Notes under the pieces: generated by a model | Database searches by the model: none | What the model saw: only the letters and a program-made list of their open reading frames with translations | What the model was told of the DNA's origin: nothing | IMG/VR virus record: IMGVR_UViG_3300016474_000918 | Span: 1-37,208 of that record | Strand: one strand, 5' to 3' | Length of the DNA: 37,208 bases | DNA from: a virus | Lineage: Duplodnaviria; Caudoviricetes | Shown: one piece after another, positions 1,369 through 37,034 of the stretch | How positions within the stretch are numbered: the stretch's first letter is position 1 | How the letters are laid out: each line of letters opens with the position of its first letter | Translations under genes and position numbers: made by a program

Positions 1369-1928
1369 CGCTCCCACGGCTCCTTGAACGGCAGGCCGAC
1401 GAACTCGAACACCTCGCGCTCGCTGGCCACCGCGCGCTCCTCGGTCCCCAGGCCCACCGGCCGGCTGAACCCGGTGCCATACGGATGCCACTGCCAGCCC
1501 ATCGCCTTGGCCGCGCTGGCGATCGCAATGTTCGACTCCCCCGGCCCCGTGCGACACACCAGGTAGTTGAACCAGTTCGCCTCCGTCGCCGCGAACAGAT
1601 CCACCGGCACGCGGCTGGCCACATGGACCGCCAGCTTGTTCTTGTCGCCCCACATGACCGACCCGTTGGCGTTGAGGCGCTTGGCCAGCACACCGGCGGC
1701 CAGCAGCCGATCCAGCACGGCATCCACCCGGCTGACCTGCTTCACGTCGAACAGCCCATCCCGCACCGTTTCCAGCTTGGGCACGAACAGGATCTCCACG
1801 TCGCCCACCTCATCCTTTCGCCGCCGCAACGAGCCGGCCACAATCAACCGGTCGGTCACCGGCTTGAGCGCATCGCACAACTCCTTGGCGACGGCCAACG
1901 CGGCCGCGCGGGGAAACCTGGTCTTCAT
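1365..1928 (-). CDS. Minimal DNA polymerase X family protein (palm + thumb only)
   Basis: VAGSLRRRKDEVGDVEIL nucleotidyltransferase motif, VPVDLF, RTGP and C-terminal SEREVFEFVGLPFKEPWER typical of the PolX thumb; coupled to neighbours by ATGA overlaps. Confidence 0.85.
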   Translation of the reverse strand: MKTRFPRAAALAVAKELCDALKPVTDRLIVAGSLRRRKDEVGDVEILFVPKLETVRDGLFDVKQVSRVDAVLDRLLAAGVLAKRLNANGSVMWGDKNKLAVHVASRVPVDLFAATEANWFNYLVCRTGPGESNIAIASAAKAMGWQWHPYGTGFSRPVGLGTEERAVASEREVFEFVGLPFKEPWER

Positions 1929-2224
1929 CGCGGGTCCAACTCAATTTTGATGCAGGCAGCGGGCAGGCCGGCCTTGTCGGGGTAGCATTCGGCCCAACCG
2001 GGGATGTTGCGCAGCGGCAGATTGTCGTAGTGGAACCCCACTACCTTGCCCGCCAGGCGCTCGGCCTTCCCGTAGCCCTTCGACAACACCCCCGCGCGGC
2101 CGATCCAGCACGTCTCCGCATTCCAACGCGGCCCGCGCAGCCGATACTCCGTGTCCTTGGTGCCCGCCTTGAACCGGTCGAAAAACTTCGCCTTGAGCGG
2201 GATGAAGAGCGGCTTGTCGCTCAC
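1925..2224 (-). CDS. ASCH/PUA-like domain protein (99 aa)
   Basis: GTG start overlapping the integrase stop; LFIPLKAKFFDRFKAGTKDTEYR matches the ASCH GxKxxExR motif, followed by LSKGYG. Confidence 0.7.
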   Translation of the reverse strand: MSDKPLFIPLKAKFFDRFKAGTKDTEYRLRGPRWNAETCWIGRAGVLSKGYGKAERLAGKVVGFHYDNLPLRNIPGWAECYPDKAGLPAACIKIELDPR

Positions 2225-3177
2225 ACCATTGCCTCCAGTGGACTCAACACATTCAACGCCTGCGGGGTCAAGTAACCGGCCGTCGTCTCCATGTTCGCGT
2301 GGCCCATCGCGGCCTGCACGTCGCGAATGTTTGCGCCGCGCTGCATCACATGGGTTGCGTAGGCGTGGCGGAGATGATGCGGCGTCACGCACAAGCCCAG
2401 CGCCCGCGCCGAATCCTTCACCGCCCGCTGCACATTCGCCTCGTGGCACCGCCAGCGCACCGTCTGGCCGGTGCGCGGATGCTGGCACGGACGAGCCGCC
2501 GGGAATACCCATGCCCATTGCCACGAGTGCGCCCAAGCCGGAAACTTCTTGGCCAGCAAACCGGGCAACGCCACCGGCAGCCCTTTGGCCTTGTCCATTT
2601 CCCACACAGCCCGCGCGTGCTTGAGTTGCGCCTTGAGTTCCGGCACCAGCGAACACGGCAGGGCCACCACGCGATCCTTGCCTCCCTTCGCGCCCCGGAT
2701 GATGAGCCGCGACTCTGCCAGCAGCACGTCCTTGACGCGCAGGTTGAGCGGCTCCGTCACGCGCAACCCCATGCCGTAAAGCATCCGCACCAAGAGCGCG
2801 GTAGGATAGCCACCCACGTCCGGCACGGCGGCGAGCAACGCGCGCACCTCGTCCACGCTCGGCGCAGTGCGGACCATAACCGGCTTCTTGGCGCGGAGCG
2901 AATCCACCTTGCCCATCTCGACTTTGAGCACCTCGCGGTAAAAGAACAGCAGCGCGCAGAAGGCTTGGTTTTGCGTGGATGCGGAAACCTCCTGCCGGGC
3001 CAACTGCGTGAGAAAGGCTTCCATCTTTTGCTCAGGCTTGGCGAGCGGATCGCATTCCTCCGACACAAAGCGAGCAAAGCGGCGAAGCCACATCGTGTAA
3101 CTCTCCTCCGTAGCCAGCGACAAGTGCCTGAGCCGCACCACGTCCCGAACCTTTTGAACCGCTTCCTCGGTTGTCAT
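2221..3177 (-). CDS. intI: Integron integrase (IntI-type tyrosine recombinase)
   Basis: N-terminal RLRHLSLATEESY and SASTQNQAFCALLFFYREVL; catalytic motifs LYGMGLRVTE, KGGKDR, HHLRH, MGH and TTAGY; integron-specific insertion LPGLLAKKFPAWAHSWQWAWVFP. Confidence 0.95.
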   Translation of the reverse strand: MTTEEAVQKVRDVVRLRHLSLATEESYTMWLRRFARFVSEECDPLAKPEQKMEAFLTQLARQEVSASTQNQAFCALLFFYREVLKVEMGKVDSLRAKKPVMVRTAPSVDEVRALLAAVPDVGGYPTALLVRMLYGMGLRVTEPLNLRVKDVLLAESRLIIRGAKGGKDRVVALPCSLVPELKAQLKHARAVWEMDKAKGLPVALPGLLAKKFPAWAHSWQWAWVFPAARPCQHPRTGQTVRWRCHEANVQRAVKDSARALGLCVTPHHLRHAYATHVMQRGANIRDVQAAMGHANMETTAGYLTPQALNVLSPLEAMV

Positions 3178-3188
3178 ATTATGCGAAC

Positions 3189-3202
3189 TGTTAAGGTGAA
3201 CT
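3189..3202. promoter_or_regulatory. Possible LexA box upstream of intI
   Basis: TGTTA-AGGT-GAACT matches 8 of 10 positions of the Verrucomicrobia-type TGTTC-N4-GAACA motif and lies 11 bp from the intI start codon. Confidence 0.4.
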
Positions 3203-3224
3203 TGTTGCCGAACCCTTGTTCGGC
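3203..3224 (+). other. attI-like site / first cassette junction (crossover G|TT at 3218/3219)
   Basis: GCCGAAC-CCTT-GTTCGGC next to the 5' end of intI. GTTCGGC is the exact complement of the R'' box of the first attC. Confidence 0.65.
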
Positions 3225-3228
3225 GGAC

Positions 3229-3483
3229 TTATCTTTGTGCCCATGCGTCCGCCGCTTCTTCGAGGTTGTTTGAAAATGCCATCGCCATGTCGTAGTCACC
3301 GCTGGCGGTGGAGTCCTGCCACAGTGCATAGGCACACGCGGCATTGTAGAGCTGGACGCCCAGCTTGTGTTGACGGTCGCCCGCCGAACCACGCGCTCCA
3401 GCCAACAGCGCTTCGCGTCTGTCGGCTTCGGAGCGCTGTTTCAGGGCGAGCGCTGTTTGCAGGTTTTCAGCTTGTTTTGTCAT
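3229..3483 (-). CDS. Cassette 1 ORF, hypothetical protein (84 aa), inverted
   Basis: Fills cassette 3219-3510; the ATG lies inside the attC1 loop. Confidence 0.65.
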   Translation of the reverse strand: MTKQAENLQTALALKQRSEADRREALLAGARGSAGDRQHKLGVQLYNAACAYALWQDSTASGDYDMAMAFSNNLEEAADAWAQR

Positions 3484-3516
3484 AGTCGCGCTGTGGCTGA
3501 GCTTGGGTCGTTAGGC
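3383..3516 (+). other. attC recombination site 1 (134 bp)
   Basis: R'' GCCGAAC, L'' GCTCCAGC, L' GCTGAGC, R' GTTAGGC. The arms GCTCCAGCCAACAGCGC / GCGCTGTGGCTGAGC pair leaving two extrahelical bases. Confidence 0.92.
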
Positions 3517-4038
3517 GGCGAAGCTCCACCGCGTTTCGTGTGTCCATCCCTTTCGGAAGTGGATTGCGCCGCACACAAAGCCGACCGGGAAGCCGACGCG
3601 ATTCCCCGGACCGTATATTCTGATTTCCTTCATCCATCCCCAGTCTTTGAGCGCGTTGAGTCTTGCCGCGCTGTTCATCGCCTTTGCTATTGGCATCAGC
3701 CATACGATGTCCGTTGCCAGCGTCATCGCGTGCGCCATGATTGCATCATACGTGCTATATGGCGGATTGCTTACAATCCAGTCCACCGGCTTTTGCCAGT
3801 CGAGGAAGTTTCGGCCTTCGCAGATTTCGCACCAGTCAGCGCCAGGCATCTCACGCCAGAACGCCCCACCACCCCGGCACGGGTCGAGGATTCGTCCAGT
3901 TGGCTTGAAGTGTTTCACGATTTCATGCGCCGTGGCGGTTGATGTCATCCACACGTCATTCGGGTTCGCGCCGCCTAACAAGGCGCTGGAGCGAATGAGA
4001 GGGAGCGAGGGCACGTCCACGTTGCAATCGAACATCAT
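3511..4038 (-). CDS. Cassette 2 ORF: small DNA amino-methyltransferase (probably N6-adenine), inverted
   Basis: Motif I ILDPCRGGGAF and motif IV IVSNPPYS. Starts in the attC2 loop (alternative start 4056); its TAA stop is part of the GTTAGGC core. Confidence 0.82.
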   Translation of the reverse strand: MMFDCNVDVPSLPLIRSSALLGGANPNDVWMTSTATAHEIVKHFKPTGRILDPCRGGGAFWREMPGADWCEICEGRNFLDWQKPVDWIVSNPPYSTYDAIMAHAMTLATDIVWLMPIAKAMNSAARLNALKDWGWMKEIRIYGPGNRVGFPVGFVCGAIHFRKGWTHETRWSFAA

Positions 4039-4077
4039 TTGCGTGCTCCCTCTCATCGCTCAGCTTGGTTGTTACCC
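3973..4077 (+). other. attC recombination site 2 (105 bp)
   Basis: R'' GCCTAAC, L'' GCTGGAGC, stem GAATGAGAGGGAGC / GCTCCCTCTCATC, L' GCTCAGC, R' GTTACCC (non-canonical, running into the phage backbone). Confidence 0.9.
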
Positions 4078-4419: not shown

Positions 4420-5351
4420 AACGGCGCTCCTTCCTCGGCAGTTGCTTCCGCCTCAGGCCCGGCCGGCGGCTGCGGCGACGTCAGGCCCGCGCGCCGTTTC
4501 AGCTCGGCCATGGTGAAGTTGGGGTCGCGCTTTTGCTCGGCGCGCTGCTTGGTCGTGATTGCGCGCCAGACGGTCTTGAGCAGATCGTCCACCTGCGCGT
4601 CGGTGAGTTCGCGCCAGACAAACTCGGTCGGGCGCGGGCAGGCGTCGCGGAACTCCGCCACGAGCCAATCCGCCGCATCGGCCATCCGCACGTTGCCCAG
4701 CTCGCGGTGGTTCGCCTTGAGCCACTTCGGCCAGGTGAACTTGTCGGCGATGATGCTCGCCACGTAACGCCGCGCGCCGCCCAACCGGCTCCAGTGCGTC
4801 GAGTCCTGCATGAACACCGCCAGCATCGGGATCAGCTCGCGCTCGATCTTCTGCTCGCGGTTGGTCCGGCTCATGCGGCTCTGGCGCATCTGCGCGTGCA
4901 AATCGCCCGGCTTCGTGACCTTCCAGAACTCGGCGAGCAGGTTGGAAAACTGGTGGTTCCCCACGTCATCGCGCGTGATGCCGCCGCGTTGCAGGAGGGC
5001 TGCACAGGCCCGGCAAGGCCCGTCCTCGCACCCGGCCACGGCGGCGTGCAGGAACGCCGCCTCGTCGGCGTCCGGCTGCTCGGCGCGCACCGTGGCCCAC
5101 TCGCGCTGCCACATCGCCCACTGCGCCGGGCTCAGCTTGGCCGGTTGCGCCGCGCCCGCGAGCTTGGCCAGATGCGGCCGCACCTGCTGGCTGAACTCGT
5201 CATCGGTCAGCTCGCGCGTGCTGTGGATCTCGTGTCCCACCGCGACCGCGCAAACCGCGTGCAACTGCGCCCGGTCCTTGGGATCAAACCCGCGCACGTG
5301 GCAGACCTGATGCCACGCGGCGTGCAACTGGCGGTTGTGGGTGGGGGTCAT
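4416..5351 (-). CDS. GemA/gp16-like protein
   Basis: Start MTPTHNRQLH; HSTRELTDDEF resembles the GemA SxxxLTxxE motif; position in the Mu-like semi-essential region. Confidence 0.55.
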   Translation of the reverse strand: MTPTHNRQLHAAWHQVCHVRGFDPKDRAQLHAVCAVAVGHEIHSTRELTDDEFSQQVRPHLAKLAGAAQPAKLSPAQWAMWQREWATVRAEQPDADEAAFLHAAVAGCEDGPCRACAALLQRGGITRDDVGNHQFSNLLAEFWKVTKPGDLHAQMRQSRMSRTNREQKIERELIPMLAVFMQDSTHWSRLGGARRYVASIIADKFTWPKWLKANHRELGNVRMADAADWLVAEFRDACPRPTEFVWRELTDAQVDDLLKTVWRAITTKQRAEQKRDPNFTMAELKRRAGLTSPQPPAGPEAEATAEEGAPF

Positions 5352-5364
5352 GGGGAAAGGCGTT

Positions 5365-5544
5365 TCAACGGTTAAGCGCTTCGAGTTGCGCGATCCGAGC
5401 AAGTTGCCGGGGTGTTGCGAGGTTTCTGCGCGCCTCATACTTGAGGCGCAGGAGTCGACTCTCGCGCCACCTGACAATGTTCCGGCGTTTTCCGGGCCGC
5501 TCCATTTGAACGTCGCCCCGCACTTCTTTTAAGCTGTTTTCCAT
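5365..5544 (-). CDS. Small basic hypothetical protein (59 aa)
   Basis: Fills the gap between co-oriented genes; start MENSLK is 1 bp from the upstream stop. Confidence 0.5.
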   Translation of the reverse strand: MENSLKEVRGDVQMERPGKRRNIVRWRESRLLRLKYEARRNLATPRQLARIAQLEALNR

Positions 5545-5545
5545 A

Positions 5546-6103
5546 TTACGTGTGTTTTTCGGGTAATCCCTCACCTGGAGCGTTCAACGCCTCTCTCCCC
5601 GCCGCCTCCAGCTCGCGCACCAGCGCGGCAAAGGCCGCGTCCGTGTCGCACCGGTTGGCCACCACGTGCACCGAGTGCAGCACCGTGCCGTGGTCGCGGT
5701 TGAACACCTCGCCGATGTCTGCCAGCGTGAGTTCGGTCAGCTCGCGGGCGAGGTGGCAGACAATGTGCCGCGCATCCGCCACGGCCTGCGGCCGTTTGCG
5801 GCCCATGATCTGCGCGCCACTTACGCCCGTGCGGCTGGCCACCAGTTCCACCAGCACCGCGAGGCTGACCTGCGGATCGTTCGACACCTGCGCGAACGCC
5901 CGCGCGGCCCGCACGCGCAGCTTGGCCACCTCGTCGCGCAGGGCCAGCACGCGCAGCAGCTGGGCCTTCTCGGCTTCCAGCGCGCGCAGCTCGGCCCCCA
6001 CGTCCAGCCCGCGCGCGGGCGGCAACGTCCCGCCCAGCACGGCCGTGCGCAGCGCCTGCACCTCAGGCGACAACCGGCGAACACAGGTAAGGCCTTCGCT
6101 CAT
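5546..6103 (-). CDS. DnaA C-terminal (domain IV) HTH protein with N-terminal coiled coil
   Basis: IMGRKRPQAVADARHIVCHLARELTELTLADIGEVFNRDHGTVLHS matches the DnaA domain IV signature (RDHxTV). Confidence 0.85.
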   Translation of the reverse strand: MSEGLTCVRRLSPEVQALRTAVLGGTLPPARGLDVGAELRALEAEKAQLLRVLALRDEVAKLRVRAARAFAQVSNDPQVSLAVLVELVASRTGVSGAQIMGRKRPQAVADARHIVCHLARELTELTLADIGEVFNRDHGTVLHSVHVVANRCDTDAAFAALVRELEAAGREALNAPGEGLPEKHT

Positions 6104-6105
6104 GG

Positions 6106-6324
6106 TCAGCTCCAGGAAGGCGGGGTGATGCCGGCCAGCCAGCCCTCCAGCTCCGCCTGGCTGGCAAACATGCGCGTGCCCCAATGCCACTCGACCACGA
6201 CGCCGCCCGTGGGCAGCAGCCGCAGGCCGAGCAGCCCGGTGACGCGCAACGGGTCCGGCTCACCCGAGGGCCGGGCGGAATCCGGGTGCGCGCGGAGGCG
6301 GAGAAGCAGTTCGGGGTTGCTCAT
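6106..6324 (-). CDS. Hypothetical protein (72 aa)
   Basis: Tightly packed in the early operon. Confidence 0.55.
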   Translation of the reverse strand: MSNPELLLRLRAHPDSARPSGEPDPLRVTGLLGLRLLPTGGVVVEWHWGTRMFASQAELEGWLAGITPPSWS

Positions 6325-6325
6325 A

Positions 6326-6889
6326 TCAGGCGGCCATTGACAGATTCTTGTCGGCGGCGATGGGCTTGGCCTTCAGCTTCAGCTTCTTGGGCTTGAAGGT
6401 GAACGTGTCCTTCTCCTCGATCCGCAGGCCGAGCCGCGCCAGCAGCTCGGGCGGCAGCAGGGCGAGCTGCTCGCGGCGCAGTTCGCGCGTGGTCTTGACC
6501 AGGTCATCAAACCGAAACGGCGTGGCGGCCTCGGCCGGGGACACGGCTTCGATCTCTTTCACGATGCGCCGCATCACCTCGTCCTCGCTGACCTCCAGCA
6601 CCACCGACTTGGAGGCGCGCGCCTGCGCGGCCCCGTGCGGGGTTTCCTTCGTGCGGCGGTTGGCTGGGAACCATTCGGGATGCATGGCCACGAGCGCGTG
6701 CAGCTCGCGCTCCACTGCCGCGTTGGCCTCTTCCAAGGCCAGCAGGTTGGCCCCGAACTTGTCGGTGATCTTTTGAAGCCGGCCGTTGGCCTTGGCGTTG
6801 AGCTTCTCCAGCGCGTTGTCGGTGCGTTGCAGCTCGGCCAGCAGCCGGGCCAGTTTCTTCAGGTCGGGGTCAATGTTGCGTTTGCTCAT
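6326..6889 (-). CDS. gam: Mu Gam-like host-nuclease inhibitor
   Basis: N-terminal coiled coil, WF...KETPHG...R and C-terminal LARLGLRIEEKDTFTFKP; size and position fit Gam. Confidence 0.8.
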   Translation of the reverse strand: MSKRNIDPDLKKLARLLAELQRTDNALEKLNAKANGRLQKITDKFGANLLALEEANAAVERELHALVAMHPEWFPANRRTKETPHGAAQARASKSVVLEVSEDEVMRRIVKEIEAVSPAEAATPFRFDDLVKTTRELRREQLALLPPELLARLGLRIEEKDTFTFKPKKLKLKAKPIAADKNLSMAA

Positions 6890-6907
6890 AAGTGTGTCTC
6901 TCCTGGG

Positions 6908-7303
6908 TTAAAGTGTCCCCGCGCCGGGCAATGCCGGGCGGGGGTTGGCCGGCTGTGTTCCAGCGGCATGGCCGCCCCCGTTATGGGCAGCCGGCACAGG
7001 CTTTTCAAAGCGAGGCAGGCAGGTCTGGCAAATGCCGTGGCTGACTTTCAGGCCGTCGCCCGAGAGGATGGGGCCGCCCTCGGCAATGCGCGCGCTCAGC
7101 ACCGTGTTGCACCAAGCGCACACGGTGAAACTGTGCTCGGGCCGCTCGCGCGGTGGGGCCGCGTCGGCCGGGGCCGGGTTGAAATCCACGCCCGCCGCCG
7201 CGTCATCGGCATGGCGGCGCTTGGTGCCAAAGCCAATCCACAGCGACAGCGGGACGGCGCAGGCGGCGAACACGGCGGAAGCGATCAGGGTATCGGGTTG
7301 CAT
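6908..7303 (-). CDS. Hypothetical protein with N-terminal TM helix and a CxxC...HGICxxC putative zinc site
   Basis: VCAWC and SHGICQTC motifs; hydrophobic N-terminus. Confidence 0.65.
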   Translation of the reverse strand: MQPDTLIASAVFAACAVPLSLWIGFGTKRRHADDAAAGVDFNPAPADAAPPRERPEHSFTVCAWCNTVLSARIAEGGPILSGDGLKVSHGICQTCLPRFEKPVPAAHNGGGHAAGTQPANPRPALPGAGTL

Positions 7304-7309
7304 GGCAAA

Positions 7310-7588
7310 TCAGGGTTGGCCCACGTGGGGCGGGTTGTAGCGAACGAGCGGTTGGATGAGGAACAGCAGGGTGCGCTGCTGGCGAAACTGCGCGAACTGC
7401 TCCACGTGCTGCTCATCCAGCACCACGAGGCAGCCGTGCAGGTGCCAGCCCTCGGCGAGGGCGGCGTTGACCTGCTTTTCGAGTTCGGCCACCGCGCCCG
7501 CGCGGGCGAGGCGATACTCCGCGCGCGGCTGCCGCGCGGCGGAACGGTTGAGCTGGTCCAAGAGAAAATCGCCGGAGGGTTCGCCCAT
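7310..7588 (-). CDS. Hypothetical protein (DUF1737-like)
   Basis: LEKQVNAALAEGWHLHG motif; operon packing. Confidence 0.6.
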   Translation of the reverse strand: MGEPSGDFLLDQLNRSAARQPRAEYRLARAGAVAELEKQVNAALAEGWHLHGCLVVLDEQHVEQFAQFRQQRTLLFLIQPLVRYNPPHVGQP

Positions 7589-7596
7589 GGTGTGAG

Positions 7597-7860
7597 TCAG
7601 TTAAGGCCGAAGGTGGCCAGTTGTTTCAGGGGACAGCCGGCAAAACTGGAGGCAAACACCAGCACGCGCTGGCGGCCCAGCTCCGGTTTCATGGGCGCGG
7701 CATAGGTCATGCACTGGCTCTGCGCGCTGCCTTCCAAGTGCAGGTGCTCGAACTTCGGCGCGATGACCGGCCAGCCCTTCACCTCGGTGGCCAGCGCATC
7801 CGCGAAGCGCCCGAGCAGGCAGGCCATGTCGATCGCGGCTTTGGGAGCGAAGGCGCTCAC
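7597..7860 (-). CDS. Hypothetical protein (87 aa)
   Basis: GTG start overlapping the upstream stop. Confidence 0.55.
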   Translation of the reverse strand: MSAFAPKAAIDMACLLGRFADALATEVKGWPVIAPKFEHLHLEGSAQSQCMTYAAPMKPELGRQRVLVFASSFAGCPLKQLATFGLN

Positions 7861-8039
7861 GATTCCCCCCGTTGCTTGGCGTCCAGCTCGGCCACCACCA
7901 GCGCCAGCGCAATCTGCCCTTCCGTGCCCATGCTTTTGACCAGATAGGCCAGCGCCCTGGCGTAGCTCTTAACTTTAACCTGCGTCGGCTCGTCCAGGCC
8001 AGCGATGACCCCGCGCACGTGAATGAGTTCGGCAGTCAT
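7857..8039 (-). CDS. Hypothetical protein (60 aa)
   Basis: MTAELIHV start overlaps the MuB-like stop (ATGA). Confidence 0.6.
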   Translation of the reverse strand: MTAELIHVRGVIAGLDEPTQVKVKSYARALAYLVKSMGTEGQIALALVVAELDAKQRGES

Positions 8040-9151
8040 TGCCACTCCCCTTCCTGCTGGCTCTGCTTCTCGATGCGAAGGTGCGCGTCGATGAAGTGTT
8101 CCCAGCTCAGTTTTTTCTCGGTGCGGCCGGCGAGCTTGCGCGCGTAGCGGATGCGCTCGGTGATGGCCTTGAGGCCGTCGCGCTTGCCGACCTGCCGCAG
8201 CACCTCGTAGGGCTGCTCGGTGACGTTCTTGACCGTGACCTCCAGCTTGGGCTCGGGAAACTCCAGCCCCGCGTGCTTGAGGATCGCGGCGAGGTCGCCC
8301 TTGGTCGGCATGGCGGGCAGGGCGACCTTGTGGACACCGCGCCGCCAGACCTGTTGCAGCTCGCCCTGGCTCGCGGCCTTGAGGTTGTCCAGGATGGTCC
8401 AGCTCAGGACCATGCCGCACTGCGTGAAGTCGTGGATGCGCCGCAGCACCTCAATGCATTTGAAGAAGCTCTTCACCTGATACGTGTGATGCAGCAGGTG
8501 AACCTCATCGAGGATCAGCAGCGTGCTCGGCGTCAGCGCCGTGCGGATGCGCCGGATCAAATCGGGCATGTTCGAGTTGGCCGAAATGCCGCAGGCCTGG
8601 GCGATGACCTTGACCATTCCGAACACGCCGCTGGCAGCTTCGAGTTCCACAAAGTAGGTGCGGCCGTGATTGTTCTGCTGCGCGTAGCGCTTGAGCGCCC
8701 ACGTTTTGCCGATGTGCGAAGGACCCCAAAGAATGACTGGCGTCTGGCTCTCGCGGCCGAGGTCGCACGCAAGGAAGATCTTGCGCGCCGTGGGCGTCTC
8801 GATGAACTCGGTGCGGCCACCGAGAAAGCGCTCCTGCTCCAGCCGCAGGAATTCGCGCGTGGCCTTGAGCAGGTCCGCCGGCACGTCGTATTTCTCGCCC
8901 GTGTCCGGGTTGGTGTGCCGGCCGGTGTAGATCTTGTAGAGCGTGTTGCGGGCATAGCCCACGCGCGCGGCAAAATCGTCCAGCGCGAGCGGGTGCGCCG
9001 GGTCAATGCACCAGCGGAACGCTGCCACCAGCGTGTCGCGCGCGGCGGGCGTGCAATGCGCCAGCCCGCCTTGGATCACGTCGCCGCTGAACTGCCACGT
9101 CGAGCGGATGCCGCCCAGCGCCTTCTCCTTCTCCTCATGTTCCTCACTCAT
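8036..9151 (-). CDS. MuB-like AAA+ transposition ATPase
   Basis: Walker A GPSHIGKT, Walker B LLILDEVH, N-terminal HTH; downstream of the transposase. Confidence 0.9.
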   Translation of the reverse strand: MSEEHEEKEKALGGIRSTWQFSGDVIQGGLAHCTPAARDTLVAAFRWCIDPAHPLALDDFAARVGYARNTLYKIYTGRHTNPDTGEKYDVPADLLKATREFLRLEQERFLGGRTEFIETPTARKIFLACDLGRESQTPVILWGPSHIGKTWALKRYAQQNNHGRTYFVELEAASGVFGMVKVIAQACGISANSNMPDLIRRIRTALTPSTLLILDEVHLLHHTYQVKSFFKCIEVLRRIHDFTQCGMVLSWTILDNLKAASQGELQQVWRRGVHKVALPAMPTKGDLAAILKHAGLEFPEPKLEVTVKNVTEQPYEVLRQVGKRDGLKAITERIRYARKLAGRTEKKLSWEHFIDAHLRIEKQSQQEGEWQ

Positions 9152-9171
9152 GGGTCATCACTCCTTTGGAA

Positions 9172-9360
9172 TTATCGAGCCGGAACCCAGTGGATGTTGT
9201 GGTCTCCGGGAACCGTGCCTTCACAAAGCCCGGCCTCAAACGCGGCCTTGGCGCGCGCGGTGTAGAAGTGCTGCTGAATCGCAAACGCGAGCAGCGCGAC
9301 GGTCAATACGGTGGCCACTATGGCCACCAGGGCTTTGTCCTGCGATCTCATGGTCATCAT
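9172..9360 (-). CDS. Small membrane protein between transposase and ATPase
   Basis: One TM helix (ALVAIVATVLTVALLAFAI); AAGGA ribosome-binding-like sequence upstream. Confidence 0.55.
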   Translation of the reverse strand: MMTMRSQDKALVAIVATVLTVALLAFAIQQHFYTARAKAAFEAGLCEGTVPGDHNIHWVPAR

Positions 9361-9374
9361 TCCTTTTTTTTGGG

Positions 9375-11606
9375 TTACAGCAGGTCTTCCGGTGCAAAGT
9401 CGTCTGCGTCCTGCACCGCGACAGCGGGCTGCTCCGCCGTCACAAAGTCGTCCGTGCCGCCCTCAAACCGCGCGACCTTGCGCGCGGTGCGGCGTTCCGC
9501 TTCCGGCATGCGGCCGGCCTGCACCGCGGCGTTGTGCTCGCGGAGGAAGGCGATGCGCTGCGCGTCCTCGCCGTGGCGCTGGCGCATGGGCGCGAGCTTC
9601 TCGTCGCGCCAGCGCTTGACCTGGCCAACCTGCTCAATGACCGCGTGCTGGTCCGCGCGGCAGGCCGCCACCCGGCGCGTGCACACGCTCACGAAGCGGC
9701 CGTCCGCGTCGTAGATGGCCATGCGGTCGGGGGCCATGGGATTGACCACGCAGAGATACCGCGCGCCCTCGCGCAACGGCTGGCCGCTGCGGTCGATGGC
9801 CGCGTAAGCGAGGCCGTCCGGGTCGATGTTCGCGTCGTCAAAACAGATCTCGCCGCCGCGCACGGTCTTGAGTTCGCCGCCGGCGACCGCGAGGTCACGG
9901 CCCACGATCTCCAGCAGCGCCGAGAGCGGCAGCTTCACCAAACCCTCGCGGCCCGTGGCCAGCGCCTCGGCGCGCGTCATGCGGCGCGCGCGGATGTGTT
10001 CCGGGTTGGCTTGGAGCGACAGCGCCAGCGTGCGCGCGGCGTCGGGCGTGAGCGTGGCGAGGTAGGCTTCCAGCTCGGTCACGGCCACCCATTGGCCGGC
10101 GACGGCGTCGAAGACTTCCTTCACGATGAACCCGCACTTCTCCCACTCCTTGCACGCGTGGTCAGGATCGTTGTTCAGGTCGGCAATGGCCTGATGCACC
10201 TGTGCAGCCACTTCGCTGAAGGTCAGCAGCGGCAGGCGGAATTCGGCCGCGCGATCGCCGGGCAGCAGGCCGATGGACTTCAGCAGCTGCACCGCCTGGC
10301 TGGCCTCGGTCTGGCTGTGCTCGGGCGAGTGCAGGCGGTCCTTGCCCACCTGACCGGGCAGGGCATCCACGCGGTTGCGCAGCCGGTTCCAAGCGCCTTC
10401 AATGGGCTTGAAACGCGGATTGCCGCCGCGCGGCGCGGCGCTCTGGCCACCGTGGGCCGGCTTGGAAAACCCTTCGCTCTTGGCGAACGTCACCTTGCCG
10501 CCCGTCGCGCGCCAGATGCGGGCTTGCAGGTCGTGGCGGTCGGGATGGTCGAGCGGGCGCTCGGGATCGCAGGTGTCACCGCGAATGGCGAAGGTGCCGC
10601 CCTCGACCAGGAACTGCGTGCCGGTGTCGCCGCGGAAGCCGGTCTCGGTCAGGAACGCGAGGACAAACCACATCGTGTCGCGCTCGTTGATCACGCGCAG
10701 CTTGTCCGCGTCCTGATCCCAGATCGTGGACTTCATGGTGTAGCTCACCATCGCGTCGCTGGCGTAGTCGTGCAGGCCGAGGCCGCGCGGGCGCACGGGC
10801 TTGGACTGGCCGGGCATCAGGCACTGGATGTCCTGCACCTCGTCGTCGCCGCTGATGATTTGGTAGGGCTTCACTCCGACGCGCGAGAACCGCGCCTTGA
10901 GCCCGATGCTCGCGGCCGCCTTCAGGCCTACGCGTGCGGCCTTGCGCTCGAAGCGATCCGGCGCGTGCCGCGTGAGGTTGCCGAGCGTCCAGCCCTCGGG
11001 CAGGCCGGTGGTGGGCAGGGCCTTGGGCCACTCCGCGTAGCCGGGAAACTCGCGGCCCCACGTGACGCCCTTGACGCGCTGGCCGTCGGTGGTGAATCCC
11101 ACCGTGTAGAGGCTGGCCAGATCACGGAACGCCGACGCCATCACGCGCTGATGCCGGTCCACGAGGAAGGCCCAGAGCCGGATGAAGTCCTTGCGGCCCT
11201 CGATGCCGCTGGCCTTCTGCCGTTGCCACCGCGCGAGCATGCGCCAGTCGCCGGCCTCGAAGAGCTGCGTGCCGCCGACGCGCCGGCCGCTGCGGGTGAA
11301 CTGATAGTAGAGGTTGCGGATGCTGCTCTCGCCCCACCCGAGGACGCCGTCCACGGCGAGCTGCCGCGCGTGGTAGGCAAAGCCGTCGCGAACATCCGGC
11401 CAGTGGTGATGGATGTCCTCGAAGACCCGCAGCATGCGGCGGATGCGCCCGCACTCTTCCACGCCCAGCGCCGCGAACTCGTCGGCATCCTCGAACGGGA
11501 TGCTGAACTCCACCGCCGGCCGCGCCGCCAAGCGCGCCGCCACGCGCGACTGCTGGCGGGCAAGGGCGGCCGGGCTGGCGGTGCGGTCGGTGAGGAGGAG
11601 GTTCAT
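9375..11606 (-). CDS. MuA-like DDE transposase (743 aa)
   Basis: ISGDDEVQD, FLVEGGT and GNPRFKPIEGAWNRL catalytic-region motifs; size; adjacent ATPase. Start trimmed to MNLLLT. Confidence 0.87.
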   Translation of the reverse strand: MNLLLTDRTASPAALARQQSRVAARLAARPAVEFSIPFEDADEFAALGVEECGRIRRMLRVFEDIHHHWPDVRDGFAYHARQLAVDGVLGWGESSIRNLYYQFTRSGRRVGGTQLFEAGDWRMLARWQRQKASGIEGRKDFIRLWAFLVDRHQRVMASAFRDLASLYTVGFTTDGQRVKGVTWGREFPGYAEWPKALPTTGLPEGWTLGNLTRHAPDRFERKAARVGLKAAASIGLKARFSRVGVKPYQIISGDDEVQDIQCLMPGQSKPVRPRGLGLHDYASDAMVSYTMKSTIWDQDADKLRVINERDTMWFVLAFLTETGFRGDTGTQFLVEGGTFAIRGDTCDPERPLDHPDRHDLQARIWRATGGKVTFAKSEGFSKPAHGGQSAAPRGGNPRFKPIEGAWNRLRNRVDALPGQVGKDRLHSPEHSQTEASQAVQLLKSIGLLPGDRAAEFRLPLLTFSEVAAQVHQAIADLNNDPDHACKEWEKCGFIVKEVFDAVAGQWVAVTELEAYLATLTPDAARTLALSLQANPEHIRARRMTRAEALATGREGLVKLPLSALLEIVGRDLAVAGGELKTVRGGEICFDDANIDPDGLAYAAIDRSGQPLREGARYLCVVNPMAPDRMAIYDADGRFVSVCTRRVAACRADQHAVIEQVGQVKRWRDEKLAPMRQRHGEDAQRIAFLREHNAAVQAGRMPEAERRTARKVARFEGGTDDFVTAEQPAVAVQDADDFAPEDLL

Positions 11607-34914: not shown

Positions 34915-36998
34915 CCGACGCCTTCATCAACCTGCCCTTCAAAGCCGGCGGCGACACCCGCGAGGGCTTGGACTGTCGCGGGTTGGTGCTGCTGTGGCTG
35001 CGCGAACGCGAGGGCCTGACCTTGCCGCCCGTGCCCAGCCACGCGCCCGAGGACGAGGTTGCCGAGCGCGCGCTGTCCGACGAACTCGGCGGCCAGGCCA
35101 AGCCGCCGGCCGTGGGGGATGTCTGCTTTTTCCGCGAGCGCAAGACCGGCAGGGTTCGCCACGTCGGCGTGTGGACCAACGAGGGCTTGCTGCACCAGAT
35201 CGGCCAGTGGGGCAGCCGCGTGGACCGGGGTTTTACGCTGCTGAACCGCACGGGCTTTGAGTTCGCCGGGTCGCTGCCGCCCACGCGCGCGCAGGCGCTG
35301 GCCGTGGCCTTGAGCGACCGCAAGCTGGGCGATCCGGTCAGCATCGGCCTGCTGGTGCTTAGCGTGGCCTTGAGCGCGGCGTCGGCCTTCCTGATGCCCA
35401 AGCCCAAGCTCGGGCAGTTCCGCAACGAGTCGGGGCGCTACGGCTTCGAGAATCTGGCCACGCAGAGCAACCCGCAGTTGCCGCTCCCTGACATTCTCGG
35501 CGCGGTCACGGTGGCCGGCAACAGCCCCTACCAGAGCCTAATCGACAAGACCCAGCCAGCCAGCGACGCCAGCCAGCAACGGGTCAACAAGGTGGTTATC
35601 CTCGGCAGCGGGCCATTCACCGCCATCGACTACCAGGGCAACGTCATCAAGATCAATGGCCGCGACTACCGCGACACCTTTTGGCATCCGTCCGGCATTG
35701 CCCTCGATCCCGCCCAAACCAAGGCCGAGGCCGTGGACGGCGACATCAGCGGTGAGCACGCCCGGCCCTCGATCAGCGTGTATCTGGGCACCCACGGCAT
35801 CAGCGTGCCCGTGGACGTGCGCGCCCAATACGACCGCAACTTCCCGATCTACGGCTTCAATGGGTGTGCCTACTTGGTCTTCCGGCTGATTGACTCGGCC
35901 AAATTCCCGCAGTTCAACCTGACGGTCACGCCCAAGGGCCGCAGCTTCCGCACGTTCAACGCCAGCGGCTTCATCACCGCCACCAGCACGAGCGAGGCCG
36001 TGGGCACCGGCGACGGCAGCACGGTGCGGTTCAAGCTGGACTACGAGGACATCGCCAGCGTGAGCAGCGTCACGGTCGGCGGCACGACTTACACCGAGGC
36101 CAGCGAGGATCAGCCAGCCGGCACGGTCTACCGGATCAACCGGCTGAAGGGCTACCTGGAGTTCTTCACCGCGCCCGCAGCCGCGGCCGCCGTCGTGGCC
36201 ACCTACACCTACTACGTGCGCGCATGGAGCCAGAACCCGGCCGTTCAGACCGCCTACCTGCTGACCGAGGAAGTGCGGGGCAAGGGCTTTGACGAGGACA
36301 AGCTCGACTGGGCTGCCTTCGCCGCCGAGCAGACCCACAACGACGAGCAGGTGCTGTGGGCTGGCGCGTCCGGGCAGGTCATCGAGGCCCGCAACCAGTC
36401 CGACTACGCGGTGGATTTCCGCCGGCCCGTGCAGGAACACCTGCGCGCCATCCGCGACGCGGCCTACGGCTACCTGTTCCTCAGCAACGGCAAGTTCGTG
36501 GCCAAGGCCCGGACGTCTGGCACCAGCGTCTTCAGCTTCACCTCGGCCAACATCCTGCGCGACAGTTTCAGCGCGGAATTGATGGACAGAAGCGGCCTTG
36601 CAAACCGTGTGCGCGTCAATTTCAGACCCCTTGCAACCTACAATGCCGAGGCCTCCGTGGTGCGCGAAAATGAGGAAGACCAGCGCGCGCGGGCGGACTT
36701 TGGCAGCACTGACGGCGTGACCGAGGAGGCTTTACAGATGGAAGCGGTCACCCGTGAGTCCCACGCCGAGCGCCTGGCCGAGCAGGCTCTGCGCGAGAAC
36801 GTCGGGCTGTCGTGGGTCTGCCAGTTCACCACCACCACCAAGGGCCTCGCCCTGGAACCCGGCGACATCGTGGACGTGACGCACCCGGCCAAGCCCTCCT
36901 GGTCTGCCAAGCTCATGCGCATCGAGGACATCGCGCTCGACTCAGAGGACCGGCTGAAGCTGACCCTGAGCGAGCACAGCAGCAGCTGCTACATCTAG
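34911..36998 (+). CDS. NlpC/P60 domain fused to a tail tip (J-like/Tal) protein
   Basis: GLDCRGLV and HVGVW...LLH (NlpC/P60); NPAV, NRVRVNF and LEPGDIVDVTH tail-tip motifs. Confidence 0.82.
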   Translation: MTDAFINLPFKAGGDTREGLDCRGLVLLWLREREGLTLPPVPSHAPEDEVAERALSDELGGQAKPPAVGDVCFFRERKTGRVRHVGVWTNEGLLHQIGQWGSRVDRGFTLLNRTGFEFAGSLPPTRAQALAVALSDRKLGDPVSIGLLVLSVALSAASAFLMPKPKLGQFRNESGRYGFENLATQSNPQLPLPDILGAVTVAGNSPYQSLIDKTQPASDASQQRVNKVVILGSGPFTAIDYQGNVIKINGRDYRDTFWHPSGIALDPAQTKAEAVDGDISGEHARPSISVYLGTHGISVPVDVRAQYDRNFPIYGFNGCAYLVFRLIDSAKFPQFNLTVTPKGRSFRTFNASGFITATSTSEAVGTGDGSTVRFKLDYEDIASVSSVTVGGTTYTEASEDQPAGTVYRINRLKGYLEFFTAPAAAAAVVATYTYYVRAWSQNPAVQTAYLLTEEVRGKGFDEDKLDWAAFAAEQTHNDEQVLWAGASGQVIEARNQSDYAVDFRRPVQEHLRAIRDAAYGYLFLSNGKFVAKARTSGTSVFSFTSANILRDSFSAELMDRSGLANRVRVNFRPLATYNAEASVVRENEEDQRARADFGSTDGVTEEALQMEAVTRESHAERLAEQALRENVGLSWVCQFTTTTKGLALEPGDIVDVTHPAKPSWSAKLMRIEDIALDSEDRLKLTLSEHSSSCYI

Positions 36999-37034
36999 TG
37001 TCCAAAAGTTCCGCCGACGTGTCCAAAGTCTGGC
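36999..37034 (-). repeat. Right-end putative transposase-binding sites R2 (36999-37014) and R1 (37020-37034)
   Basis: Reverse complements GCGGAACTTTTGGACA and GCCAGACTTTGGACA match the left-end sites. Confidence 0.78.

Follow-up and report, generated by a model that had tools for sequence, protein, structure and literature searches.

A Mu-like phage with a complete integron among its early genes and with mirrored cassette genes that appear to start in their own attC sites

In the stretch of DNA analyzed here (the window, a single virus record of 37,208 bases), we found a complete integron, comprising an integron integrase (IntI), an attI site and two attC cassettes, inside the early gene cluster of a Mu-like phage. 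The two cassette genes lie on the attC bottom strand and start inside their own attC; they are likely transcribed with the early phage genes, and their cassettes are likely moved by IntI. We consider it probable that this reading is correct as a whole. The features involved are collected in Table 1.

Table 1. Features of the integron and of the adjoining phage genes (window coordinates)
Feature	Position	Strand	Remarks
Phage gene 3' of intI (phrog_625)	1925..2224	-	4-base overlap with intI stop
IntI, integron integrase, 318 aa, intact	2221..3177	-	TIGR02249, 275.5 bits
attI	3178..3224	+	Crossover G|TT at 3218/3219, 40 nt from intI start codon
Cassette 1, 292 bp	3219..3510	+	Terminal complementarity, 9 bases
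Cassette 1 gene, 84 aa, predicted helical	3229..3483	-	First 33 codons in attC1
attC1, 134 nt	3383..3516	+	Extrahelical C and A on top-strand left arm; stem score 15/15
ATGA overlap, Asn-frame stop over gene 1 start	3480..3483	-	Used by upstream gene in L222
Cassette 2, 561 bp	3511..4071	+	Terminal complementarity, 11 bases
Cassette 2 gene, predicted N6-adenine DNA methyltransferase	3511..4056	-	NPPY motif; phrog_799, E 6e-23; stop is core TAA, 3511-3513
attC2, 105 nt	3973..4077	+	Extrahelical G and A on top-strand left arm; stem score 15/15
SD-like GAGGGAG	4046..4052	-	7 nt before ATG 4038, in paired L' arm
ATGA overlap, Asn-frame stop over ATG 4056	4053..4056	-	
Upstream phage early gene, 115 aa	4072..4419	-	Its TAA makes the last G|TTA core

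Family searches identified a transposase (phrog_310), a MuB-like ATPase (phrog_296) and Gam (PF07352) on the minus strand of the window; the plus strand carries genes for terminase, portal, capsid and tail. The first three are characteristic of Mu-like transposable phages, as is the host-type DNA present at both ends of the window: a dehydrogenase gene on the left and, on the right, a membrane-protein fragment that is presumably TerC-like. Since the left host gene is closest to Verrucomicrobiota genes (among the five genomes compared, 55 to 65% identity to genes of three Verrucomicrobiota genomes and 38 to 43% to planctomycete and Nitrospira genes), the host of the phage is likely a member of the Verrucomicrobiota. 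A short motif occurs in inverted copies at both phage ends (window positions ~740 to 795 and 36998 to 37030), and these copies are candidate transposase sites of the Mu-like ends. The early cluster also holds, after intI, a gene for a PolX palm-thumb fragment (1365 to 1928), and a further early gene encodes a DnaA C-terminal helix-turn-helix domain (5546 to 6190). No relatives of an upstream gene of 353 aa were confirmed when these were sought in viral contigs.

IntI scores above the TIGR02249 cut-off of 265 bits, and its residues 8 to 315 align with IntI4 (PDB 2a3v; E = 1.9e-43) continuously through the integron-specific insertion. Residues R139, K164, H267, R270, H293 and Y302 are invariant in all three IntIs compared and align with 2a3v; we take this R-K-H-R-H-Y set to be the catalytic residues, a role assigned from established knowledge. 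The closest relatives of IntI, at 57% and 51% identity, are in Verrucomicrobiota genomes. The tree does not show the phage IntIs as a single clade: ten rows group together at 88/89 support, and two are unresolved beside two genome IntIs. The window IntI resembles that of another locus (L001) almost throughout to residue 254, after which the C-terminal part diverges (alignment A1, columns 255 to 315; window 3080 to 3177 versus 2930 to 3050), a pattern which suggests that the window integrase is recombined. A further locus, L229, encodes a second phage integrase of the ordinary kind (2780 to 3724) immediately upstream of its cassettes.

The attI site is kept up to an invariant GTT in all 14 aligned loci, conservation ending at that GTT; in 15 related loci, 28 to 50 nt separate its core from the start of intI. 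Contigs of two other sequencing runs depart from the window at 3222 and 3224, just past the attI core. In every one of the 16 rows compared, attI shuts the frame in which AAC at the crossover is read as Asn (the Asn frame) ahead of the intI start. At the other end of the gene, a start codon overlaps the intI stop in seven of nine full-length cases among related loci. When the frames that run toward intI through attI (window 3178 to 3220) are followed, one stops 13 nt before the intI start and one ends in an ATGA overlap with it; the third is open into IntI, and therefore some cassettes could yield an N-terminal fusion to the integrase. Together with the first bases of cassette 1, attI forms a short perfect hairpin with a 4-base loop (3205 to 3226), which is a product of this particular cassette. 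A promoter-like match on the plus strand (3154 to 3182) is weak (9/12; two such matches were found, with 1.0 expected by chance) and antisense to the cassette genes. It is a candidate Pc promoter, so that expression of the cassettes with no Pc, as put forward in the preliminary description of this DNA, is a possibility and no more. Beside the nearest genome IntIs (L243, 1 to 180; L244, 1 to 237), an attI-like region carries TATAAT shortly ahead of the likely core. Phage sites show a decayed match at the same place, and this may be a lost Pc.

Both attC sites contain the R''-L''-L'-R' boxes, with the extrahelical bases on the R''-L'' arm, and because each holds two such bases on its left arm, the plus strand of the window is the attC top strand. 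In a scan of both strands of the whole window, attC1 and attC2 alone reached the full stem score, and one further site reached 13/15. The first bases of each cassette are complementary to its own R'' end, a trait expected of cassettes that have passed through circular intermediates. Folding of the attC2 bottom strand gave a z of -4.96; that of attC1 gave a z of just -1.76, its canonical stem being in competition with an internal repeat, and the canonical fold of attC1 is accordingly poor (pairing of the L arm with its partner of about 0.1). The repeat lies at window positions 3395 to 3450; even so, no other cassette was found as widely as cassette 1. Both cassette genes are on the minus strand, that is, the attC bottom strand, and are co-directional with intI and the phage genes. 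The preliminary description had placed both ORFs on the minus strand and had suggested expression from the phage early transcript; our reading of the sequence and its translations agrees on the strand and places the cassettes within the phage early gene cluster. The usual integron trait of genes on the attC top strand, pointing away from intI, is thus absent from these cassettes. The array is not a CALIN, in which no integrase is found near the attC cluster, since intI adjoins attI; nor does it belong with the inverted integron-integrase group, since intI is on the minus strand and the attC top strand is the plus strand.

This layout is shared by related phage loci. One search with an attC-arm pattern yielded 76 viral loci and 142 genome loci, the genome scan covering 6 of the 64 parts of the collection. 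From these, ORF strands were counted at 43 viral sites and at 49 from genomes, after removal of duplicates, of sites flanked by less than 400 nt and of sites without a closing arm within 200 nt; the long-attC arrays L025 to L027 and L071 to L075, which may be top-strand, are among those left out. The longer ORF was on the bottom strand at 34 and on the top strand at 8 of the 43 viral sites, compared with 7 and 37, respectively, of the 49 genome sites (p = 1e-9, for sites that are not independent). The longest-ORF rule is crude and files cassette 2 of the window itself as top-strand, and for this reason family matches were added as a second test of strand. Such matches were obtained for 21 of 40 bottom-strand and none of 25 top-strand ORFs in viral loci, and for 11 of 42 top-strand and 1 of 37 bottom-strand ORFs in genome loci. 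The 21 viral matches include 16 DNA methyltransferases and two Mom-like proteins. In a wider set, 34 of 134 viral sites scored as top-strand. Related integrases yielded further complete integrons, and at the 12 IntI loci that were counted (omitting the duplicate L230, L224 and L233, which were too short, and L234, the ends of which failed the rule), the longer ORF is on the bottom strand in all 30 cassettes. The neighbors of these related loci are phage genes of differing kinds. The bottom-strand bias of viral relative to genome loci bears out the earlier suggestion that this is a phage-adapted cassette design.

The same comparison bears on a different reading, in which these are ordinary bacterial cassettes that were taken up with a piece of a host integron or put in the wrong way round through a rare recombination of the top strand. 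Verrucomicrobiota genomes do contain the arm motif of these attC sites and the nearest relatives of IntI, and top-strand recombination is described, in the portions of the source available to us, as existing at low frequency and as rare in assays (PMC5027507). Backwards insertion, however, would leave the start beyond the site and the extrahelical bases in the far arm, whereas here the arm is canonical and the starts lie inside. Moreover, the cargo in the family-verified genes is phage-type, and bacterial arrays with this arm are mostly top-strand. We regard this reading as largely refuted and give it hardly any credence.

A few individual loci deserve mention. The single bottom-strand gene with a family match among the genome loci (L148, 2027 to 2725) is in a Shapirobacteria bin and resembles a phage-type cassette. 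Record Rctr41k (L248, KX853513) speaks against a design common to all phages, as it has a more distant IntI and top-strand cassettes; at 4495 to 9900 it contains an unannotated integron with the inverted-integrase layout, at least six attC sites and top-strand genes, and its integrase gene is named xerD in GenBank. Our site finder recovered none of the published CALIN sites in MW202573 and NC_028924.

The sequence also indicates that the cassette genes start within attC, so that an attC arm would be translated as the N terminus, as had been claimed in the preliminary description. Of the 21 family-verified viral genes, 18 lack any start codon in the interval from R'' to the family match, and an in-frame ATG is present in attC in 17 of the 18. 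For the gene of cassette 2, the family match starts at residue 31, and at least 90% of 121 aligned sequences retain D34; because start codons upstream of D34 exist in attC2 only, this gene must start in attC2. Its candidate starts at 4056 (in the L' arm), 4038 and 4035 are in the same frame, and all are within attC2. The product is predicted to be an N6-adenine DNA methyltransferase on the basis of a SAM-dependent fold and the NPPY motif, its model fitting the folds of M.TaqI and M.BseCI, a fold that RNA methyltransferases match too. The protein has 216 homologues; a methyltransferase profile search of PDB sequences gave no match, and no relatives were confirmed among viral contigs. Arm-like leader peptides are present in many of the methyltransferase homologues, some of which have a second Met just after that peptide.

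The gene of cassette 1 has no in-frame ATG, GTG or TTG after R'' before its last quarter, and its ATG (3483) falls in the unpaired middle of attC1. Relative to its copies in two viral contigs, it carries 10 synonymous and 2 nonsynonymous codon changes (L222) or 9 and 3 (L223), and because these changes are mostly synonymous, the reading frame appears to have been maintained; within attC1 itself, three of the four distinct codon changes are synonymous. Its protein matched nothing in family searches or in the Atlas, and a single-sequence model (pTM 0.38) consists of long helices.

It might be argued that the cassettes are real but that their attC-coded N termini are artefacts of gene calling, the genes starting outside attC or being silent. 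The second Met of some homologues would be in keeping with this, as would the low pLDDT (about 45, compared with more than 90 for the domain) of the attC-coded residues 1 to 28 of the methyltransferase, which are predicted to be disordered; furthermore, while 22 of the 30 cassettes at the 12 IntI loci start in attC, 8 start outside it. We find this difficult to reconcile with a conserved D34 that lies upstream of the first start outside attC, or with the lack of a later start and the mostly synonymous attC1 changes in gene 1. In addition, in-frame ATGs within attC are enriched in the frame of the gene (60 of 88 sites, versus 46 of 176 for the other frames). We consider artefactual N termini very unlikely, and starts within attC remain our preferred reading.

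As to which ATG in attC2 is used, the preliminary description had placed the two starts (3483 and 4038) in the attC loops, with GAGGGAG 8 nt before the ATG, and had regarded attC as a translation-initiation region. Both ATGs do lie within attC, ATG 4038 being in the unpaired middle of attC2, and the Shine-Dalgarno (SD)-like motif is present at a distance of 7 nt rather than 8. For cassette 2, however, ATG 4056 is better supported and fits the family: in 11 of 21 sites, the sole ATG within attC is 17 to 22 nt from the R' end, which is the position of ATG 4056. The pairing of an SD-like motif with a loop ATG is a minority feature, and the predicted mRNA structure at attC2 puts both the motif and ATG 4056 within a stable, fully paired stem. 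One possibility, which we think rather doubtful, is that a ribosome arriving from upstream unwinds the stem and the L'-arm GAGGGAG then directs fresh initiation of cassette 2 at ATG 4038; this would leave our interpretation of the array as an integron as it is. The motif would pair with the anti-SD sequence at -7.0 kcal/mol with good spacing, an arrangement that recurs in L034 and L036, and the gene that enters attC2 ends at the core and so leaves the overlap at 4056 idle. Yet an energy of -5.5 kcal/mol or better is reached at only 3 of the 21 family-verified viral sites, which rules out an SD motif in the attC arm as a general rule, and no such motif is present in the start region of cassette 1. 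ATG 4038 may serve in cases such as the window, where the core brings the incoming gene to a stop 15 nt ahead of the next ATG, with ATG 4056 being the preferred start from family comparison.

With regard to gene endings, the stops at 4072 and 3511 had been identified as the TAA of the G|TTA cores, and this is correct (4072 to 4074 and 3511 to 3513); the stop of the cassette 1 gene (3229) is 11 bases inside the cassette and outside any core. Termination in the core was rejected as a feature of all these genes, being found in 6 of 21 family-verified genes and in 6 of the 11 that have a GTTA core (p = 0.12). Eleven of the 21 have no stop in their own cassette and read through, and all 11 cross the crossover with AAC as Asn, as do 15 of 16 at IntI loci. 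The Asn frame is closed within attC in 124 of 134 viral sites, compared with 72 and 71 for the other two frames; for comparison, at 72 genome sites the frames are closed in 33, 28 and 27. In 32 of 60 viral sites, a count that does not include the window attC sites, the Asn-frame stop overlaps the ATG of the gene as ATGA (4 and 10 in the other frames). After clustering at 80%, the overlap is found in 25 of 47 for the Asn frame, in 4 and 7 for the other frames and in 3 of 30 genome sites. A fixed frame at R'' was tried and ruled out, the three frames accounting for 30, 35 and 23 of 88.

Both window attC sites fit the frame rule, with an Asn-frame TGA over ATG 3483 and another over ATG 4056. In L222, the upstream gene enters attC1 in the Asn frame and ends at the ATGA overlap. 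In the window itself the overlaps are idle, since both incoming genes stop at a core TAA, 15 and 27 nt ahead of the next ATG. The predicted mRNA hairpins are strong and could dampen downstream expression.

Several comparisons point to mobility. Cassette 1 is present with identical borders in viral contigs L222 and L223, where it occupies plain G|TT sites that precede a gene start by 15 and 7 bases, and runs X2 and X5 gave matches to it over 3218 to 3506. By itself, attC2 (3972 to 4071) is matched by one X5 contig, and two complete phages carry such cassettes without an IntI. Four sequencing runs were compared in the form of contigs, and one of them, X1, may be the origin of the window. The occurrence of one cassette at different sites is an indirect sign of excision and insertion, and the cassettes are likely moved by the phage's own IntI. 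A joint in an X2 contig (3220 to 3381) was considered as an excision and rejected, as the letters between are not known and the contig continues unlike the window. Contigs of relatives leave the window sequence again at 4074 and 4076, and because divergence occurs here as well as at 3222 and 3224, the last core may have been a stop codon used as a secondary site, rather than what was once the right half of attI. Exchange also appears to occur at R'': three pairs have a common gene body (from G|TT to AAC) with differing attCs, and protein P0004 has the cassette 2 methyltransferase body behind a different leader. The X5 match to attC2 by itself points the same way, and the route may be top-strand recombination or some other one. 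In L004 and L031, which have the same gene body, the terminal inverted repeats differ at both ends in a compensating manner, and this points to selection on an extended R''/R' stem.

How might such an array work? By analogy with integron biology, IntI would recombine the folded bottom strand at G|TT and insert cassettes at attI in the normal sense, so that the inversion would reside in the gene and not in the recombination. Each gene would have its 5' end in its own attC and its 3' end toward the crossover and intI, and would likely be read from the phage early transcript. It would end in one of two ways, either at the TAA of a G|TTA core or by reading AAC as Asn through to a stop at the landing site; in the latter case the Asn-frame stop, as an ATGA overlap, would couple translation of the incoming gene to that of the next. 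The attC-coded leader would be exchangeable. What the phage likely gains is a stock of accessory genes, DNA-modifying ones included, that can be renewed and is expressed early in infection.

A broader, tentative proposal, to which we assign somewhat less than even chances, is that Verrucomicrobiota phages maintain a cassette economy with a shared plug. Gene bodies enclosed in private 8- to 12-bp inverted repeats would swap between attC inner parts at R'' and R'; attC would supply the start and a throw-away leader, the crossover would be read as Asn, a stop would hand the ribosome on, and a minority of phages with IntI would serve integrase-free phages in trans. If this is true, new cassettes would arise by the joining of a body to an attC, which would provide a handle on cassette birth; natural body-for-attC exchanges at R'' bear on cassette genesis. 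A phage lineage with unchanged recombination geometry, mirrored genes and a frame rule means that any operon running in one direction can be supplied by this enzyme, and with such a design phages would be able to exchange accessory genes, DNA methyltransferases among them, quickly. The window array, with one integrase, one attI and two cassettes, is a small and complete system and hence a ready test case.

Integrons are taught as bacterial devices, in which strand selectivity serves to face genes away from Pc. Vibrio arrays contain isolated genes in inverted orientation, for example toxin-antitoxin cassettes. Loot and colleagues reportedly described, in 2024, cassette insertion at nonclassical attG sites. 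The location of cassette 1 in L222 and L223, at plain G|TT sites flanked by phage genes, resembles this, with the difference that here phage genomes provide the landing sites and the gene would be read along with its neighbors.

The usual integron layout and the inverted integron-integrase group were described by Cury et al. (2016; PMC4889954), in whose text, as far as accessible, cassette genes are said to lie "most frequently" on the attC top strand, away from intI. According to the available sections of Nivina et al. (2016; PMC5027507), promoter-facing cassettes, inserted whole and backwards, are unseen in mobile or chromosomal integrons. The available parts of PMC11551772, PMC11023631 and bioRxiv 10.1101/2022.02.06.479319 contain nothing on a mirrored-gene phage design, and our literature search, with most subscription journals outside its coverage, did not find the design described. 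Phage integrons and CALINs were reported by Qi et al. (2023; PMC9892861), and the portions of that paper at hand describe attC sites in phages that are IntI1 substrates and a DNA methyltransferase cargo, both of which recall the window; they describe complete phage integrons as pieces of host or class 1 integrons, and make no mention of bottom-strand genes, starts in attC or a phage-type IntI lineage. In class 1 integrons, translational coupling at attI1 and attC involves ORF-11, ORF-17 and short ORFs in attC (PMC8876359, in the part available). As in the window, stops are supplied by the core; reinitiation occurs across recombination sites there and would do so here. Unlike in the window, the helper ORFs are short top-strand peptides, whereas in the window it is the cassette gene that has its beginning in attC, on the opposite strand and under a shared frame rule. 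In the inverted integron-integrase group (Treponema and others), as presented in the accessible text of PMC4889954, intI and the cassette genes have the same direction, as they do here, but there it is intI that is turned relative to attC, whereas the window keeps the usual relation of intI to attC and has its cassette genes turned. With classical integrons (class 1, and the sedentary chromosomal ones of Vibrio cholerae and others, including Verrucomicrobia, as covered in the same text), the window has in common a true IntI, an attI by the intI start, attC hairpins with extrahelical bases, an intI divergent from the attC direction and G|TT cassette borders. It differs from them in that its genes point toward intI, on the attC bottom strand, and start in attC, that the attI core of its type is 28 to 50 nt from the intI start, and that the unit is set within a one-directional phage gene cluster. 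Judged by its sequence, the window array is thus a true integron, with normal recombination geometry, mirrored genes, a plug-in translation frame rule and signs of body exchange at R''.
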